A program made the translations under genes and the position numbers. The notes under the pieces were generated by a model that was given only the letters and a program-made list of their open reading frames with translations, was not told where the DNA came from and ran no database searches. 45,001 bases of DNA from a virus (Duplodnaviria > Heunggongvirae > Uroviricota > Caudoviricetes): the IMG/VR virus record IMGVR_UViG_2671180676_000003; one strand, written 5' to 3'. Below are positions 24,548-45,001 of the stretch, piece after piece (position 1 is the first letter of the stretch; each line of letters starts with the position of its first letter).

Positions 24548-25546
24548 TTGAGAATAAAACCAATGGATAAGGCTAACAAACAAGTCAAAGCAACAAAGTC
24601 AGTGCCGACTAAAAAAACAGCCCTCCCCCCAAAAGCTAAGTCTGTAAAGCCAGCGGCAGAAAAGAATAAAACTGAAGGTATGACATATCCGAAAACCAGT
24701 GCGGATGGACACGCTGGAGAGTACTTGTTTGCCTATTGGATTTCTCGTTATTTCAGATGGCCTTGTCGATTGCTAGATATTGATATGGGATTGGATGCTC
24801 AGGTTGAAATATATGAAAATAATCTTTCGACAGGTTTTTTTATCGGCGTTCAGATAAAAACCACCTCACGCAAAATGAAGAGAAGGTTAAGCGTACAAAT
24901 ACCTTATAAAAATATAACCTATTGGGGAAGTTGTGATTTTCCTGTGGTAATTGTTTTGATATGCCTACACGATGATAATGAATTAGACGAACCTGCTATT
25001 TATTGGAAGCATTTAGATAAAAAAACAATTTCTAAAATAAAGGATAAAGCATTAAGAAGTGACTCTGGATGTGCTCCTGTAACTTTCAATAAGGATGATT
25101 ATCTGTCTGAATGGGCAGACAAACCAAAGTGGGTCGACATGTGGCTTACAGAAGAAGATAAAGAGATAATTGAGCTTGCAAAGCGAGTAAACAAGACGTT
25201 GCTAGAGATAGGTGTTCCTCTTGATAAATTCGGAGACGAGTATGACCGCAGCACCTACCTGTGTAGCCCTGAGCGGGTAGTACCAGACTTGAACTCTATG
25301 ATGAATGAATATGAAAAAATAAATAACCATATACGTGTAAAGCGTCGATTAGTAGAATTCGATCCTGTAGTGTCGATTTGTTCACAAAATTATGAAAAGT
25401 ATCTACCTAAAATCCTTGAATATTTTGAAGATGTGGTCGCACGTAGTGTCGGTTCATACTCGATTGCAGAACATTTCGAACCATACAGTGATCGTAATCA
25501 TATTCTGAATCGAATAATTATAGAGAAAGCCCCTAATTCAAGATAG
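24548..25546 (+). CDS. Hypothetical protein with Lys-rich N-terminal tail and PD-(D/E)xK-like nuclease core
   Basis: Plus-strand gene in a minus-strand block, AT-rich. Motif GEYLFAYWISRYFRWPCRLLDIDMGLDAQVEIYEN...FIGVQIKTT fits a D..D/E..E.K restriction-endonuclease-like pattern. Start is TTG 24548 or ATG 24563. Confidence 0.5.
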   Translation: MRIKPMDKANKQVKATKSVPTKKTALPPKAKSVKPAAEKNKTEGMTYPKTSADGHAGEYLFAYWISRYFRWPCRLLDIDMGLDAQVEIYENNLSTGFFIGVQIKTTSRKMKRRLSVQIPYKNITYWGSCDFPVVIVLICLHDDNELDEPAIYWKHLDKKTISKIKDKALRSDSGCAPVTFNKDDYLSEWADKPKWVDMWLTEEDKEIIELAKRVNKTLLEIGVPLDKFGDEYDRSTYLCSPERVVPDLNSMMNEYEKINNHIRVKRRLVEFDPVVSICSQNYEKYLPKILEYFEDVVARSVGSYSIAEHFEPYSDRNHILNRIIIEKAPNSR

Positions 25547-35651: not shown

Positions 35652-36473
35652 ATGACTATCCTTGAAAATCCTGATGCGAATGTTGAATCTGTTTATAGTC
35701 TTCATCCAACCACGTTGTTTCATTTTACAAAAAACGAAGATGCTTTCTATAGCATATTGGCTGAGAAATATTTTAAACCATTTCTTGCTCGCGAGGAAAT
35801 AAGAGGAGTCGGGGGACGTAGGAGGTTTGCAGTACCAATGGTATCGTTTTGTGACATAAAACTATCACAAATCAGAGATCATAGCGGAAAATATGGAGAA
35901 TTCGGTCTTGGGCTAACTAAGTCTTGGGCGGAAAAGAAAGGTCTACACCCAGTTCTATATATGAATAAGAGTAGTGAAATATTTTCTAAATACAATGCCA
36001 GAATTCGACTTATTAAAAATAAGTTGGTGCCGCTTTGGAAGGCTAGAGGAAATTTAGATACCAAAAACAGAATAGAGTTTGAGAAATTGAAAGCAGAATA
36101 CTCTGATCTATATAATTTACTGCGTTATATGAAAAATTACAGAGGCAAGCTAGAGCGAAAAGATAATAAAACAATAGAGAATTATATATATGCAGACGAG
36201 AAAGAGTGGCGTTATGTGCCAGCTCCTTTTATTGGTGATTTATGGCCTAGTCTGAGTTTGGAGCGTGTTATCACTTCTGATGACAAAGCAAAAATTAGCT
36301 CAGAATTTTCAAAGTTTGGCATTGATTTTGAGTTCAATGATATAAAATATATACTTATACCTAAAGAACAACATATCCAAAAGCTAATTAACTTTCTCTC
36401 AGGTTTAGATGGATTTGAATCTTCAATTATTAGCAAAATTCTGACCATGGATAAAGTAAAGCAAGATTTTTAA
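35652..36473 (+). CDS. Hypothetical protein, gene A of AT-rich two-gene cassette (candidate defence/abortive-infection component)
   Basis: 273 aa from ATG 35652 (AAGGTG Shine-Dalgarno; the track start GTG 35607 is less likely). About 33-35% GC by hand count against roughly 45-50% for backbone genes. Conserved-looking N-terminal block LHPTTLFHFTK...AVPMVSFCD...GEFGLG. Confidence 0.6.
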   Translation: MTILENPDANVESVYSLHPTTLFHFTKNEDAFYSILAEKYFKPFLAREEIRGVGGRRRFAVPMVSFCDIKLSQIRDHSGKYGEFGLGLTKSWAEKKGLHPVLYMNKSSEIFSKYNARIRLIKNKLVPLWKARGNLDTKNRIEFEKLKAEYSDLYNLLRYMKNYRGKLERKDNKTIENYIYADEKEWRYVPAPFIGDLWPSLSLERVITSDDKAKISSEFSKFGIDFEFNDIKYILIPKEQHIQKLINFLSGLDGFESSIISKILTMDKVKQDF

Positions 36474-36499
36474 TTTTTGGTTTAACGGGAGCCTAATTA

Positions 36500-37711
36500 G
36501 TGTCAATATTTTTAAGCGAAAAGGAAATGCAAAATTGGATAATTGACAAATTATCTGATCAAGATGGATTATATAATTCAATCATCAATATTGATAAATT
36601 AAACGAATTTAATCCGAAAAGACCCGAAGAGAAAAAAATTAAGGAGAGTTATCAGTTTTGTTTAAAGAACATAACATTGTTACATTTAATGACAGATGAT
36701 GAGAATATCTCAGCAACAAAATCTGAGATATTAAGACCTGATGTTGTTGCTTATTCAACAGAGAATGAATCCTTAGTTCTTATTGAGTTAAAAAACTTTT
36801 CAACACCAACAAGGGAAGCTGGAACTGAGTTGGTGGCATATGCTGCGGAACTAAAAAGTTACTTGTCATACTTGTCTGATGGAGATATTACCAATGTACT
36901 TATATCACCTGACTGGCCACCCCTGGTTAGACACTTTATTTTTAATATGATCGTGTGGCAGAAGAAAAACTTTCTATGTTTAGAACCTTGCTATGATTTA
37001 CAAGGTAACGTATCACTTACTCCTTTAGATATTAATAAATTAGTTATTGCGGAAGAAGCACTCAAGTTCTCATTTCGTCATCTTGGTGGGTTTCATATAT
37101 GTTTGTATGATGATGAAATGTATAATAAACCGACTTCAACTTCTCGTTTACATTCGAAATTGAATGTTATTAAAGCCAGCATGGCAAAAATGTCCTCAGA
37201 CGGTGAAAAGACTAATAGCCATGGGTTTGCTATTTTATGTAGAAATTTGAATGAGAGAACTTTAGCGCCATATACGATTACTCTAGTTAATGTTTCTGCG
37301 TTTTCTTCCATAGAGCGATACTTTCATTCGCCACAAATATCCAATGCTTCTCAACTCCCTAGAATAGGACAAAAAATTTATGACATTTACACTCATTACC
37401 AACCATCAGGTTTTGGGGCATCAATGTCGAAAATTTACAATTCTGGGAAGGCATATTTAGAAAAAATTAATTGCAAGCCGCGGATCGAGGTTATAGACAC
37501 CTGGGATGTATTGCAAGCACATACACATGCGCCTTATATGGAAATGGTTCATATTGAAACGTGGGGAGTTTTTAAAGAAAAATTGATTGAAGGTCTAAAT
37601 GAATGTTATGAGGATGAATATTACACACCTGATTTTGACGATGTAGATTTTTGCATGGTGTGTATTGAATCCTTAATTGACCAGAATTATGAATTTATAA
37701 AACTTTTTTGA
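36500..37711 (+). CDS. Hypothetical protein with N-terminal PD-(D/E)xK nuclease motif, gene B of AT-rich two-gene cassette
   Basis: 403 aa; GTG start 26 nt after the gene A stop, with GGGAG Shine-Dalgarno; motif ILRPDVVAY...ESLVLIELKNF fits PD...(D/E)xK; same AT-rich composition as gene A. Confidence 0.6.
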   Translation: MSIFLSEKEMQNWIIDKLSDQDGLYNSIINIDKLNEFNPKRPEEKKIKESYQFCLKNITLLHLMTDDENISATKSEILRPDVVAYSTENESLVLIELKNFSTPTREAGTELVAYAAELKSYLSYLSDGDITNVLISPDWPPLVRHFIFNMIVWQKKNFLCLEPCYDLQGNVSLTPLDINKLVIAEEALKFSFRHLGGFHICLYDDEMYNKPTSTSRLHSKLNVIKASMAKMSSDGEKTNSHGFAILCRNLNERTLAPYTITLVNVSAFSSIERYFHSPQISNASQLPRIGQKIYDIYTHYQPSGFGASMSKIYNSGKAYLEKINCKPRIEVIDTWDVLQAHTHAPYMEMVHIETWGVFKEKLIEGLNECYEDEYYTPDFDDVDFCMVCIESLIDQNYEFIKLF

Positions 37712-41904: not shown

Positions 41905-42681
41905 TTACCAACTTCCCCAGCTAATCATCTTGCGCTGATCGCTTTCTAAGCGATAAGGGGCAAGAAGCTCTGTGACATGATTGGTGGCGTATGATTTAGC
42001 CTCTTGCTTAATCATCGGTAATTCGTTAGCAATCCTGACCATCTTCCCAGCAAATTCCGCCATTACGCCATCACAAGCCTTCCCCGCATCAACAACGATA
42101 TGCACAAGATCCAACTGGCTTTTGCACATATCCCAAAGAGACGCGTATTCACTCTCTCTGATTACATTTACGGCACTATTAGCCCCTTTATTAATCAAAA
42201 CTTCCAACAGATTTTTCGGGGTAACGAAATCTGCTTTCAGAGATAATGTCTTTTCACCACTTATCGAACGCAAGTACTCTTCGTAGTTATTCTTCATCAA
42301 ACCGCTGCTGCGCATTGCTAGAACTGCTTCTTGAATGGCCGCTTCAATAGTTTCGTCGTTTGAAAGACAAAAAACGGTATTTGTGTAGATCACTCTGCCA
42401 TCAAGCCATGCTCCAACCTGCACTTTAAGACTGAGCGGGTTTTCTTTGCTAATAAAAACAACTAATGCAGAACGCCGTGCACAAGAAGGTTCGCCCCATA
42501 CGTGTAACTCAACTTTCAGATAAGGCAACCCTGGTAGCGGGATCTCGTCCATACGAGCAGCGATATGATTCATTGCTGTATTGACGGCCTTTCCAATGAT
42601 GTCTAGTCGACTGCCCTCGCTGATTTCTAAACCTGTTTTATCAATGATGTCACAGGCCAATTTCTGAATTTCGTCTTTCAT
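41905..42681 (-). CDS. Hypothetical protein
   Basis: 258 aa ORF with the recurrent promoter-like motif about 40 nt upstream. Confidence 0.5.
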   Translation of the reverse strand: MKDEIQKLACDIIDKTGLEISEGSRLDIIGKAVNTAMNHIAARMDEIPLPGLPYLKVELHVWGEPSCARRSALVVFISKENPLSLKVQVGAWLDGRVIYTNTVFCLSNDETIEAAIQEAVLAMRSSGLMKNNYEEYLRSISGEKTLSLKADFVTPKNLLEVLINKGANSAVNVIRESEYASLWDMCKSQLDLVHIVVDAGKACDGVMAEFAGKMVRIANELPMIKQEAKSYATNHVTELLAPYRLESDQRKMISWGSW

Positions 42682-42806
42682 ACCAACTCCTAGCTAACAG
42701 ATGAAAGTATTCTTACAAAAAACTAAGTATGTATCTACTTATCATTTTAGGCGCAATAGTTCCCTATACGAAGATGCCGGGCTTATAGTCTGCCCGGCAT
42801 TCACCA

Positions 42807-43220
42807 TTAATGAGCTACAGCCTCACTGTTGCACATCTTTCTGTAGACCTGCTTATAACGCTGTAAGTCATGAGGATCATTAGGTGCCAACGACTTCGAT
42901 AGGATTTTGTATACCACCCCTTTCGAAAACATGCCCTTTGGCTTCATTTCGAGTTCAACAACATATGAGTGATAGCCCACGTATGCACCAAAGCCATTTT
43001 TGGCGTTCAATTCTCCGCACACAAAGCCTGTCACACTCCCATCGTCATGATCAGTCCTGACAAACTTATCTTTCCTAAACATCACCGACGTGGGATCTTT
43101 CATATCATCCGCAATTGCTTGTTGGCCCAGAGCAATAGCCTTCTCATCTGTAGGCTTACACCCCACTAAAGCAAACAAAGACAATAAAGCTCCTGTTAAA
43201 ATCAGCTTATTTTTGCTCAT
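42807..43220 (-). CDS. Hypothetical lipoprotein
   Basis: 137 aa; signal peptide with lipobox (LFALVGC). Confidence 0.6.
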   Translation of the reverse strand: MSKNKLILTGALLSLFALVGCKPTDEKAIALGQQAIADDMKDPTSVMFRKDKFVRTDHDDGSVTGFVCGELNAKNGFGAYVGYHSYVVELEMKPKGMFSKGVVYKILSKSLAPNDPHDLQRYKQVYRKMCNSEAVAH

Positions 43221-43453
43221 GTTGGCTTCCCTTTATTTATATTTATCGCAGGTATTAGTTAATCAAAACACGAGCAGTGCCACAATAATTAAATGGCGTA
43301 CTATTTCTTATGGTTATTAGTTTCCTAGTAACTTTACCGACCATAAACTAAATCAACAAAGCTGACATATTAACTAAATTTAAGTACCATTTTTCGCACA
43401 CTTGACACTTGCCGCGTCTAAACTGTTCATCCTATATCAACAGAACAAAAAAT

Positions 43454-44599
43454 ATGAAATACATAAAATCTTCATCGTTGCTGGCATTAACTTTGCTTTT
43501 TAGCTCTGGATTCGTTAACGCAGACAATAAACAAACGCTGATAGAAGCCGCTACCGCAGGGGATACCGCAGCACAAAGTGAGTTAGGGACAAATTATTTT
43601 GATGGTATCAATGGTTTTGATAAGGATGTAGTTGAGGCCAAGAAGTGGATTGATCTCGCTGCAGAAAAGGGAGACAAAGTAGCATATTATGCACTTGGGG
43701 TTATGTACACATTTGGCGAGGGTGTAGATAAAGACTTAAATAAAGCAGTTGAGTACTACAAACTTGCGGGAGATGCTCGTGAAGGTAGAGCCTATAACAA
43801 TCTTGGTGCTATTTATCAAAAGGGGATGCTTGGTAAAGTAGATCATGCGCTCGCCATTAAATACTTCAAACTAGCCTCTGATGCCGGGTATGTTAAAGCT
43901 AGCTACCTTCTTGGTGCGTATTACCAATATGGTAAAGGTGTACAAAAGAGTTATAAAAAAGCTTTTACTTATTACAAAAAAGCGGCGGATCAAGGTAGTT
44001 CAGATGGCATGTTCGCATTAGGCACCTTATACGATGACGGTTTAGGTGTTAAACGCAACGATGCCGAAGCAATTAAGTGGTATAAAAAAGCTGCTGAACT
44101 CGGAAACGCCGATGCCATGACAAATCTTGGCATTATGTATGAGTATGGTGAAGGGGTTAAAAAAGACTATAAAAAAGCAGCTGAGCTTTATCAGGCTGCT
44201 TGTGATAAAGAAGATAAAAATGGCTGTGATTACATTGCAGAACTGAAAGAAAGCGGCAAATATCGAGCGCCGGCTTCCAAAGCCAAAACAAAATCCGCCA
44301 CCCAGCGACTTATTGCTAAATCCATTGATAAGGGCGTTAACGCTACATTTACCTGGCAGGGTGATGATGCTACCTTCACCGCTAATGATGGCAAAGTTGA
44401 CTGCACCTTTCTGAAGGATTTTTCAGAGAAAGGAGGCAATCTGGCTACCTCGTTTGTTTGCACCGACAACGTTCAAATCATCCTGAAGCAATTCAGAGAT
44501 ACCAAGAATGCCTACCTCGCAGTAATGACTGACAACTTCAATACAGAAGTTAAATCATTTTCGGTCAATGTGTATGTGACTAATACTGGTTCAAACTAG
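43454..44599 (+). CDS. Secreted Sel1-like repeat (SLR/TPR-like) protein with C-terminal domain of unknown function
   Basis: Signal peptide MKYIKSSSLLALTLLFSSGFVNA, then about six Sel1-type repeats (e.g. AxxWYKKAAELGNADAMTNLGIMYEYGEGV) and about 130 aa with no recognisable motif. The track's TTG start at 43409 is less likely. Confidence 0.7.
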   Translation: MKYIKSSSLLALTLLFSSGFVNADNKQTLIEAATAGDTAAQSELGTNYFDGINGFDKDVVEAKKWIDLAAEKGDKVAYYALGVMYTFGEGVDKDLNKAVEYYKLAGDAREGRAYNNLGAIYQKGMLGKVDHALAIKYFKLASDAGYVKASYLLGAYYQYGKGVQKSYKKAFTYYKKAADQGSSDGMFALGTLYDDGLGVKRNDAEAIKWYKKAAELGNADAMTNLGIMYEYGEGVKKDYKKAAELYQAACDKEDKNGCDYIAELKESGKYRAPASKAKTKSATQRLIAKSIDKGVNATFTWQGDDATFTANDGKVDCTFLKDFSEKGGNLATSFVCTDNVQIILKQFRDTKNAYLAVMTDNFNTEVKSFSVNVYVTNTGSN

Positions 44600-45001
44600 T
44601 GCTGCAATGCCTTTCACCTTGCTTAAGAGTTCAAGCTGTCGTGAATAAGGTTTTGCGCAATAGTAGGCTTTGATAATCTGCCCCGGTGTCGCATCGCCGG
44701 GGTCGAGTCCTTCCTCGCCCAAACACGCAACTTTGACATTAAGACCAATACTTGTGAGTCGCCTAGCTGCGGCCATAGTGTTGCGTATAGCTTGCTTTTC
44801 ACTATCCCACATCATGATCACATTACGTAATCCACGCGCCTTGAGCGTCAGGAACGCGCCCAGCTGATCTTCTGCATCCTGAGTGGTGTTGCCAGATAGA
44901 TGCATCCCGAACGTTCCTATTGGTTCCACGTAATCACGTAATGTTTCTTCGTCAAAAATAGCTCGTTTGACCCCCATAACATCGTAAGCGTCAACGGAGC
45001 A
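44591..45001 (-). CDS. Partial CDS (5' end off-window), possibly the TOPRIM-containing C-terminal part of a primase-like protein
   Basis: The frame stays open to the window edge upstream of the first Met; acidic motifs (MMWDSEKQ, GLDPGD) vaguely resemble TOPRIM. Weak. Confidence 0.3.
   Translation of the reverse strand, partial: CSVDAYDVMGVKRAIFDEETLRDYVEPIGTFGMHLSGNTTQDAEDQLGAFLTLKARGLRNVIMMWDSEKQAIRNTMAAARRLTSIGLNVKVACLGEEGLDPGDATPGQIIKAYYCAKPYSRQLELLSKVKGIAALV

Follow-up and report, generated by a model that had tools for sequence, protein, structure and literature searches.

Background

Morons, or lysogenic-conversion genes, were defined for lambdoid phages by Hendrix and colleagues; bor and lom of lambda, the cor lipoprotein and Llp of T5 are examples. 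Exported prophage lipoproteins and periplasmic mini-barrels are typically receptor blockers, inhibitors or immunity proteins, and the small beta-barrel is the class of fold to which periplasmic inhibitors, immunity proteins and ligand binders belong. Among proteins built of Sel1-like repeats (SLRs), EsiB (c5321) of Escherichia coli binds secretory immunoglobulin A, and EsiB, the Hcp proteins of Helicobacter and LpnE of Legionella interact with hosts. SSU5-like phage-plasmids are common in clinical Enterobacteriaceae and have been studied mainly as carriers of resistance genes. Here we analyse one locus of such an element, contained in the virus record IMGVR_UViG_2671180676_000003, of which the whole stretch of 45,001 nucleotides is called the window throughout. 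At this locus a slot in the replication module holds a gene for a small lipoprotein and, divergent from it, a gene for a Sel1-repeat protein with a C-terminal domain of its own (hereafter the Sel1 gene and Sel1 protein).

The two genes are two independent accessory modules and not one two-gene system. The explanation that we consider best, and probable, is that the slot is filled by two independent, self-contained morons whose products are destined for the cell envelope of the lysogen.

Results

The element and its cargo slot

Sequence comparison places the window among the SSU5-like phage-plasmids of E. coli: the region reaches 100% identity with the E. coli plasmid pUTAK-6-1 and 97-99% with many plasmids about 110 kb in size, pECOH89 included, and the phages Cyrano, CMS-2020a, PhiR41_1 and SSU5 are relatives. 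According to the annotation of pUTAK-6-1, the backbone is a minus-strand array of nucleotide metabolism and replication genes, interrupted by few plus-strand genes. In Cyrano the phrog_4248 gene and the primase gene, which flank the slot, are only 75 bp apart; similarity to the window stops near position 42745 and restarts at the primase stop codon, and about 1.84 kb of the window is therefore an insertion relative to Cyrano. Similarly, plasmids with an empty slot span about 1246-1252 bp where the window has 3080 bp. The phrog_4248 gene also flanks the slot in SSU5 and pHCM2, as well as in plasmids of Enterobacter, Klebsiella and Cronobacter.

Occupation by these two genes is a minority state. 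A sensitive DNA search matched the region around the slot in 791 plasmid records, mostly through the flanking genes, as against 91 of 72,556 plasmid records with the C-terminal domain of the Sel1 protein, which adjoins the primase gene on an SSU5-type replicon in every record shown. The cargo segment is present in 62 of 5426 complete E. coli genomes, and it is plasmid-borne in all of them.

At least seven states of the slot were catalogued from inspected examples. It is empty in Cyrano, CMS-2020a and PhiR41_1 and in elements of E. coli, Shigella, E. albertii and Klebsiella oxytoca. The lipoprotein gene occurs alone, 33-57 bp downstream of the primase gene and on the same strand, in Enterobacter, Salmonella and Cronobacter plasmids, and the Sel1 gene occurs alone in Enterobacter and Citrobacter plasmids and some E. 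coli-type contigs. Both genes are present in about 50 plasmids and in 14 of the 24 IMG/VR contigs that carry the C-terminal domain (one of the 14 with a frameshifted lipoprotein gene). In SSU5 (SSU5_041, L003:3938-4975) and in plasmid pHCM2 of Salmonella Typhi (WP_000209842.1, L021:1479-2531) the place is taken by an unrelated plus-strand gene for a protein of 345-350 amino acids, and in a phage-plasmid of K. pneumoniae (WP_060577902.1, L023:1764-2930) by another unrelated plus-strand gene, for one of 388 amino acids. Finally, copies disrupted by the insertion sequence (IS) IS1 or frameshifted are found in E. fergusonii and others. The slot thus holds dispensable, polymorphic cargo and not a conserved virion or late component.

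This comparison across relatives agrees with the sequence-only reading of the window in two respects, namely that the element is a phage-plasmid and that the two genes, both absent from Cyrano, CMS-2020a, PhiR41_1 and SSU5, are accessory cargo. The same reading had regarded them as a single exported-protein locus, and in the functional sense this view is not supported: each gene is found alone in the same slot and, separately, in other types of prophage.

Independence of the two genes

In the primase-proximal slot of relatives, each gene is found intact without the other. Moreover, the two have diverged separately where they occur together. Between the window and the enterotoxigenic E. coli plasmid NZ_LR882992 the lipoprotein is 98.5% identical, whereas the Sel1 proteins of the same pair differ strongly in their repeats and by one whole repeat of 36 amino acids. 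Outside SSU5-like elements the two genes were never found together in the contexts inspected. Beyond these elements, full-length relatives of the Sel1 protein share 42-58% identity with it. In prophages of Leclercia their genes immediately follow those for tail fibres or GDSL tailspikes; a P2-like contig has the gene between FII, for the tail tube, and E, for the tail assembly chaperone; and other copies lie on a megaplasmid of Pantoea and within an apparently interrupted cdiA gene of Pseudenterobacter. The lipoprotein family is found between ogr and int in the P2-like phage SEN5 and between the tail genes K and I in the lambdoid Escherichia phage Fraca. Tail-gene, tail-fibre and ogr-int sites are classic moron positions, and since the genes recur there and each occurs alone, both behave as independently mobile single-gene cargo.

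The likeness to morons extends to other features. Each gene is found in some related phages and missing from others at the same place between conserved genes; the base composition deviates from the surroundings, with a G+C fraction of 0.39 at 43001-44000 against about 0.44-0.47 across most of the backbone; the orientation is opposite to the surrounding operon; the products are exported envelope proteins by prediction; and a candidate promoter belongs to the cargo itself. The low G+C and opposite orientation of the Sel1 segment also resemble those of the other plus-strand islands of the window, which carry AbiGi-family and DUF4365 genes. As for a terminator, the scan of the locus gave none after the Sel1 gene and a hairpin after the lipoprotein gene. 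This hairpin (fold energy -25.6 kcal/mol, z -2.8, stem of 7-9 bp, exact only in the closest relatives) lacks a U tract and so is not a canonical terminator; it may act as a terminator of another kind or as a stabiliser, or be a recombination scar.

Of 11 homologue contexts, 8 have the motif CTGACA-N17-TAnnnT at a distance of 88-107 nucleotides before the ATG; two of the eight are a P2-like tail-operon copy and a copy embedded in cdiA, both outside SSU5-like elements, and the rest of the upstream DNA has diverged. It often reads CTGACA-N11-TTGAAGTAACCT. In these alignments the motif clearly travels with the Sel1 gene, for which it is a candidate promoter or other regulatory box. The Sel1 gene and the minus-strand replication operon point towards each other, the 3' ends of the Sel1 and primase genes overlap by 9 bp, and the Sel1 gene has no terminator of its own; we therefore infer that it is best expressed when the operon is quiet. 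For the lipoprotein gene, a sigma-70 promoter directly upstream on the minus strand was considered and rejected: the sole TTGATT/TATAAA pair has a 19-nucleotide spacing and would remove the ribosome-binding site.

The Sel1 protein

The open reading frame (ORF) called mechanically on the plus strand starts with TTG at 43409 (396 amino acids) and ends at 44599; the RefSeq annotation of pUTAK-6-1 uses the ATG at 43454 and gives a protein of 381 residues (43454-44599), whose numbering we follow. Its N-terminus, MKYIKSSSLLALTLLFSSGFVNA followed by DNK, combines a basic n-region with about 15 residues of hydrophobic core and, for signal peptidase I, the site V-N-A before D. This signal is kept in homologues that are just 34-56% identical, and it suggests that the protein is exported by Sec to the periplasm. 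In the P2-like prophage (L047:3044-4285) the Sel1 protein starts MKKIKCKILLILLTLSVGCNTYA, and this copy could be a lipoprotein (S-V-G-C) or else be secreted in the ordinary way (cleaved between TYA and A), so that the mode of anchoring may differ between relatives.

Membership of the Sel1-like repeat family is clear from the Pfam profile Sel1 (PF08238), which gives six repeats with 175.5 bits against a cut-off of 30.7 (E 7.6e-53), and from the relationship to solved SLR solenoids in the PDB (E 1e-73 to 1e-40; 6ok3 1.6e-73, 4bwr 9.3e-66, 1ouv 3.3e-40). By eye, the repeats can be traced from residue 38 to residue 254, and next comes a capping helix with a Cys-x6-Cys pair. The difference between homologues is exactly one repeat of 36 amino acids, and proteins with 5, 6 or 7 repeats have 345, 381 or 417 residues. 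E. coli EsiB/c5321 (4bwr), the Oxalobacter-type "Sel1 repeat protein" (6ok3) and Helicobacter pylori HcpB and HcpC (1klx, 1ouv) share the tandem 36-residue repeats, the alpha-solenoid and the N-terminal Sec signal, and the terminal Cys pair of the Hcp proteins resembles the pair in the capping helix; in contrast, none of them has a C-terminal beta-barrel, and the Sel1 protein described here is cargo of prophages and phage-plasmids.

More specific assignments were not obtained. The NCBIfam equivalogs MerG (78 against a required 350), MotX (58 against 330), AlgK (57 against 700) and ExoR (35 against 450) are not reached, and their scores reflect repeat similarity only. Sel1-repeat immunity proteins of the type VI secretion system (T6SS), of the Tli5/PA5086-5088 type, stand beside a cognate effector; here no such effector adjoins the gene, whose neighbours are replication genes, and the PDB chains 5jkp and 5jjo, which we take to belong to this immunity family, match at only E 6e-16 and 4.5e-14. 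Both the Sel1 protein and the lipoprotein match full-length PHROG families of unknown function (phrog_8741, E 4.6e-209, and phrog_2320, E 1.9e-39), so the ORF and domain features are not due to chance. Database labels already exist for both: "tetratricopeptide repeat protein" and "hypothetical protein".

The C-terminal domain

Behind the repeats, residues 255-381 comprise the capping helix with the Cys-x6-Cys pair, a Lys-rich linker of about 18 amino acids and a beta domain of about 95. None of four C-terminal domains queried had a Pfam match at E<=10, no PDB sequence matched even with a profile, NCBIfam and PADLOC gave no family, and tblastn against 50,697 GenBank phages gave no match. An exhaustive HMMER search of 1.84 billion representative proteins returned eight clusters, seven of them real; the remaining cluster, P0129, was rejected as spurious because it matches through "FTWSGD" immunoglobulin-like repeats. 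A word-indexed homologue search returned four fragments only. Every match long enough to show its N-terminus has Sel1 repeats ahead of the domain, and the rest are C-terminal fragments. From these searches the domain is a near-orphan confined to the Sel1 protein family in Enterobacterales, with the invariant-residue motif C-x2-NVQ-x2-LK-x-F-x4-N-x-Y-x4-T. The protein as a whole belongs to the Sel1-like repeat family and carries at its C-terminus a barrel not described before.

The model of the domain was compared with known folds. The matches are DUF4251 (4gdz; score 9.2), Cap15 (7.9), the T6SS immunity protein BtaiB (7.8), the inhibitors PliC, MliC, PhiA and ACP (6.1-7.7), and avidins together with outer-membrane barrels (6.2-7.6). 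The predicted fold class, a small eight-stranded beta-barrel, is clear in the model and the match is generic. The domain falls outside the sequence families of the MliC/PliC, ACP and PhiA inhibitors and of small-barrel immunity proteins such as BtaiB: there is no MliC or PliC match in Pfam at E<=10 or in the profile search of PDB sequences, the barrel is fused here behind a Sel1 solenoid, and functionally unrelated barrels match equally well. The DUF4251 model of Pfam does not match at E<=10 either; the 4gdz protein, from Bacteroides eggerthii, belongs to a different phylum, has a different architecture and is itself without known function.

The lipoprotein

The N-terminus of the lipoprotein, MSKNKLILTGALLSLFALVG followed by C, ends in the lipobox L-V-G-C and has Lys at position +2. 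Cys21 is invariant in 65 homologues, 7 of which match the Pfam model LPAM_1. By the Lol sorting rule of E. coli, the residue after the lipidated Cys predicts the membrane of destination, and Lys at +2 directs to the outer membrane; the protein would accordingly carry its lipid at Cys21 and sit in the outer membrane on the periplasmic side. The mature domain is predicted to have an alpha-beta4-alpha, cystatin/NTF2-like fold with a probable Cys68-Cys130 disulfide, and the family has the conserved motif DP-S-x2-F ... VCG-x2-NAKN-x2-G-x-Y-x-G. In the prediction it shares this fold with cystatins, latexin and the periplasmic domains of VirB8, TraE and DotI at a sequence identity of just 4-13%, and it differs from cystatins by the lipid anchor and by the lack of their QxVxG loop; no cystatin superfamily was matched in Pfam.

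More than 347 members of the family were counted, nearly all of them in Enterobacterales, and the family lacks a Pfam domain. Searches of Pfam, NCBIfam and PADLOC gave no family beyond LPAM_1 in some relatives, PDB sequence searches with the single sequence and with a profile gave no relative, and a fold search against viral structures (BFVD) matched only uncharacterised phage lipoproteins. In phage Fraca (L005:2821-3681) two different small lipoprotein genes lie in tandem between K and I; the first encodes a relative of the lipoprotein of the window, and the second, of 111 amino acids, is unrelated and uncharacterised.

Most of what the sequence-only reading said of the two proteins was therefore confirmed: the 137-residue lipoprotein is encoded on the strand opposite to the Sel1 gene, with a lipobox and an invariant Cys21; the Sel1 protein has a signal peptide and six repeats, which score far above the Sel1 threshold; and the stretch of about 130 residues behind them, described as free of recognisable motifs, resolves into the capping helix, the linker and a beta domain that matches no described family. 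The term secreted, which it applied to the Sel1 protein, goes further than the sequence, which predicts Sec export to the periplasm only.

Selection and mosaicism

Both genes are intact and under purifying selection. In pairwise Nei-Gojobori comparisons the ratio of nonsynonymous to synonymous substitution rates (dN/dS) amounts to 0.03-0.04 in the lipoprotein; it is 0.11-0.20 in the Sel1 protein, within which the C-terminal domain (0-0.06) is the most constrained part and the linker the least. The Sel1 gene of the window (43454-44599) was also compared with the homologous loci L010, L011, L012, L013, L006 and L029. Within one plasmid pair the synonymous divergence rises from 0.05 in the C-terminal domain to 0.58 in repeats 4-6. 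At the level of these alignments, this difference of about ten-fold indicates recombination inside the gene, and the alleles with 5, 6 or 7 repeats indicate gain or loss of repeats. The coordinates of the features are collected in Table 1.

Table 1. Features of the slot, its cargo and its flanks, in coordinates of the window
Feature	Position	Strand	Remarks
Left flank of slot	41905..42681	-	Conserved SSU5-group hypothetical gene, phrog_4248 (E 2e-131), in the minus-strand replication module
Inserted cargo segment, about 1.84 kb	42750..44590		Missing from empty-slot relatives
GC-rich hairpin after lipoprotein stop codon	42776..42798	-	Exact inverted repeat GCCGGGC-N9-GCCCGGC; no U tract
Lipoprotein gene, 137 amino acids	42807..43220	-	Six-frame ORF list; lipobox LVGC (Cys21)
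AT-rich divergent intergenic region	43221..43453		233-bp spacer between the two genes
Candidate Sel1 promoter, CTGACA-N17-TACCAT	43362..43390	+	Sigma-70-like, from promoter scan; about 90 nucleotides upstream of ATG
Sec signal peptide, residues 1-23	43454..43522	+	Predicted cleavage between VNA and D; read from the sequence
Six 36-residue Sel1-like repeats and C-terminal capping helix (Cys250/Cys257), residues 24-270	43523..44263	+	Pfam Sel1 and PDB matches
Lys-rich flexible linker	44264..44302	+	Predicted local distance difference test (pLDDT) of the model below 50; most variable segment, dN/dS about 0.3
C-terminal near-orphan domain and stop codon	44303..44599	+	Predicted small eight-stranded beta-barrel; invariant Cys317/Cys336
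Right flank of slot	44591..45001	-	3' part of DNA primase gene (phrog_47), running off the window

Other occupants, remnants and islands

The slot proteins of SSU5 and pHCM2 are 57% identical to each other and apparently cytoplasmic. Pfam has no match for this family or for the Klebsiella protein of 388 residues, and PADLOC has none for SSU5_041; both are candidates for uncharacterised defence or exclusion cargo. Decay variants of the segment are, in otherwise intact elements, an IS1 insertion that truncates the Sel1 gene and frameshifted lipoprotein genes (seen among E. fergusonii NZ_CP056962, the proteins P0002, P0006 and P0008, and L045:2504-2918), and also remnants. To the latter belong the chromosomal copies of Escherichia (L019:6001-6549 and L024:2978-4933), which were considered as native genes and rejected, being remnants with a primase fragment and IS debris. 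They keep the C-terminal domain or the whole Sel1 gene together with the primase fragment in the same overlapping arrangement, in a region with trp/ompW or yciB-like genes, and in L024 debris of an IS3-type transposase lies upstream.

In Pseudenterobacter timonensis (L028:3044-4306) a full-length homologue of the Sel1 protein, 56% identical, is encoded within an apparently interrupted cdiA gene, which has haemagglutinin repeats to either side of it and, further downstream, PT-VENN and DUF6862 domains. This copy may have been inserted there by chance or may be connected with contact-dependent inhibition.

Two further plus-strand islands interrupt the backbone of the window. A two-gene island at about 35652-37711, which includes the lowest G+C of the window (0.32 at 36001-37000), is annotated in pUTAK-6-1 as an "abortive infection system antitoxin AbiGi family protein" and a hypothetical protein of 403 amino acids, and it is probably an AbiG-like defence island. 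A single gene at about 24561-25544 (G+C about 0.41), between a hypothetical gene and dnaE, is labelled there as a DUF4365 domain protein and is likely to be further cargo.

Discussion

If the slot is indeed filled by two self-contained morons, the Sel1 gene would be read from its own conserved candidate promoter, convergently with the replication operon, and would likely be expressed in the plasmid-prophage state. Its product would reach the periplasm through Sec, where the six-repeat solenoid would serve as a protein-binding surface and the flexible linker would tether to it the small disulfide-bonded beta-barrel. The lipoprotein, held in the outer membrane through Cys21, would present a disulfide-stabilised cystatin/NTF2-like domain to the periplasm, and the two proteins would probably act separately.

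As for the role of these products, we tentatively favour protection or exclusion at the lysogen envelope, that is, binding, blocking or inhibiting an incoming agent, a possibility of which we are far from certain. The agent could be the receptor or the injection step of a superinfecting phage, or a cell-wall-degrading enzyme or toxin. We favour this role because exported lipoproteins and mini-barrels typically act in this way, because the same slot and the other plus-strand islands carry defence-type cargo (AbiGi-family, DUF4365), because the Sel1 gene recurs near tail and tail-fibre genes in other prophages, and because the barrel is the most constrained part of the protein.

Several observations weigh against these proposals. 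The -10 element of the upstream motif is poor, which leaves it a candidate promoter only, and the Sel1 gene lacks a terminator in the scan of the locus. In the lipoprotein-only relatives the lipoprotein gene, just behind the primase gene and on its strand, may be co-transcribed with the replication genes and so not be specific to lysogeny. PADLOC-DB 2.0 contains no defence family that matches either protein; it gives only a PtuA fragment of 21.7 bits on the repeats, without a significant stretch, and nothing for the lipoprotein. Literature searches returned no paper dealing with these genes, and no database annotation or search result obtained here assigns a function to either protein. Moreover, the step from cargo slot to protection is an argument from position and only suggestive.

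A bolder form of the protection proposal, which we regard as rather unlikely, would make the Sel1 solenoid with its mini-barrel the founding member of an unrecognised class of mobile, phage-borne periplasmic protection proteins. Each would have its own promoter and a barrel that neutralises an incoming envelope-targeting agent, be it injection or wall-degrading machinery or a toxin, and they would hop between the replication modules of phage-plasmids, P2-like tail operons and sites near tail-fibre genes. The primase-proximal slot would then be a hotspot of single-gene defence or exclusion cargo, the SSU5_041/pHCM2 and Klebsiella 388-residue families included.

Other explanations start from the similarity of the repeats or of the barrel to known proteins. 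The matches of the repeats to the structures of EsiB/c5321 (4bwr, E 9e-66), of LpnE-type proteins (6deh) and of HcpC and HcpB (1ouv, 1klx), the signal peptide, and the many carriers that are clinical or animal-gut isolates would all suit a host-interaction or colonisation factor, released or exposed at the surface, that binds a host molecule as EsiB, Hcp and LpnE do and improves fitness in the gut or outside it. We consider this unlikely: the similarity is generic, all Sel1 proteins matching each other; no secretion system or autotransporter feature would carry the protein past the periplasm; and the carriers, whose sources are humans, pigs, poultry, cattle, soil and water, show no visible link to a pathotype. 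Moreover, the tail-operon and tail-fibre-proximal positions in unrelated prophages are more typical of phage-versus-phage genes, and constraint is strongest on the barrel, a part that is missing from EsiB, Hcp and LpnE. The barrel in turn is compatible in fold with a periplasmic inhibitor of peptidoglycan hydrolases like MliC/PliC, ACP of Neisseria or PhiA of Brucella, and the solenoid would then offer another surface for binding, by analogy with EnhC, a Sel1 protein of Legionella that is reported to inhibit a lytic transglycosylase. The lysogen would in this way be protected from host lysozyme, T6SS muramidases or the wall-degrading enzymes of superinfecting virions. We nevertheless hold both the inhibitor and this form of protection to be still less likely than a host-interaction factor, given that MliC and PliC were absent both from the Pfam matches of single sequences at E<=10 and from the PDB sequences matched by a profile, that equal or higher scores go to unrelated barrels (avidins, outer-membrane proteins, designed barrels, DUF4251), and that the motif of the domain is, to our knowledge, unlike the MliC/PliC signature.

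The remaining explanations concern the two genes as a pair. Their adjacency, divergent around the shared spacer, and their co-occurrence in most E. coli carriers, counted above, would fit a two-component envelope system acquired as a unit, in which the outer-membrane anchor recruits the Sel1 protein. Against it stand the intact copies of each gene alone in the same slot, the lack of any joint occurrence outside SSU5-like elements, and the decoupled divergence seen with NZ_LR882992, and we judge it very improbable. Even more remote is a part of both genes in the life cycle of the phage itself, as envelope or lysis accessories or as replication factors and not as cargo. They do lie within the replication module, and in some relatives the lipoprotein gene directly follows the primase gene on the same strand; but plaque-forming SSU5, Cyrano and PhiR41_1 lack both genes, most SSU5-like plasmids lack both as well, and pseudogenised copies persist in otherwise intact elements. 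This pattern of presence and absence largely refutes it.

Conclusions

As it stands, the locus is ordinary prophage cargo, well characterised, and both proteins are already present in databases and PHROG families. The analysis defines one cargo slot of SSU5-like phage-plasmids, which exchanges unrelated single genes, and the slot is a concrete place to seek traits by which the surface of the lysogen, or its resistance to phages and toxins, is altered. The C-terminal barrel is very narrow in distribution, strongly constrained and without a described family; if it is a true inhibitor or exclusion module, it would represent a new architecture among periplasmic protection proteins.

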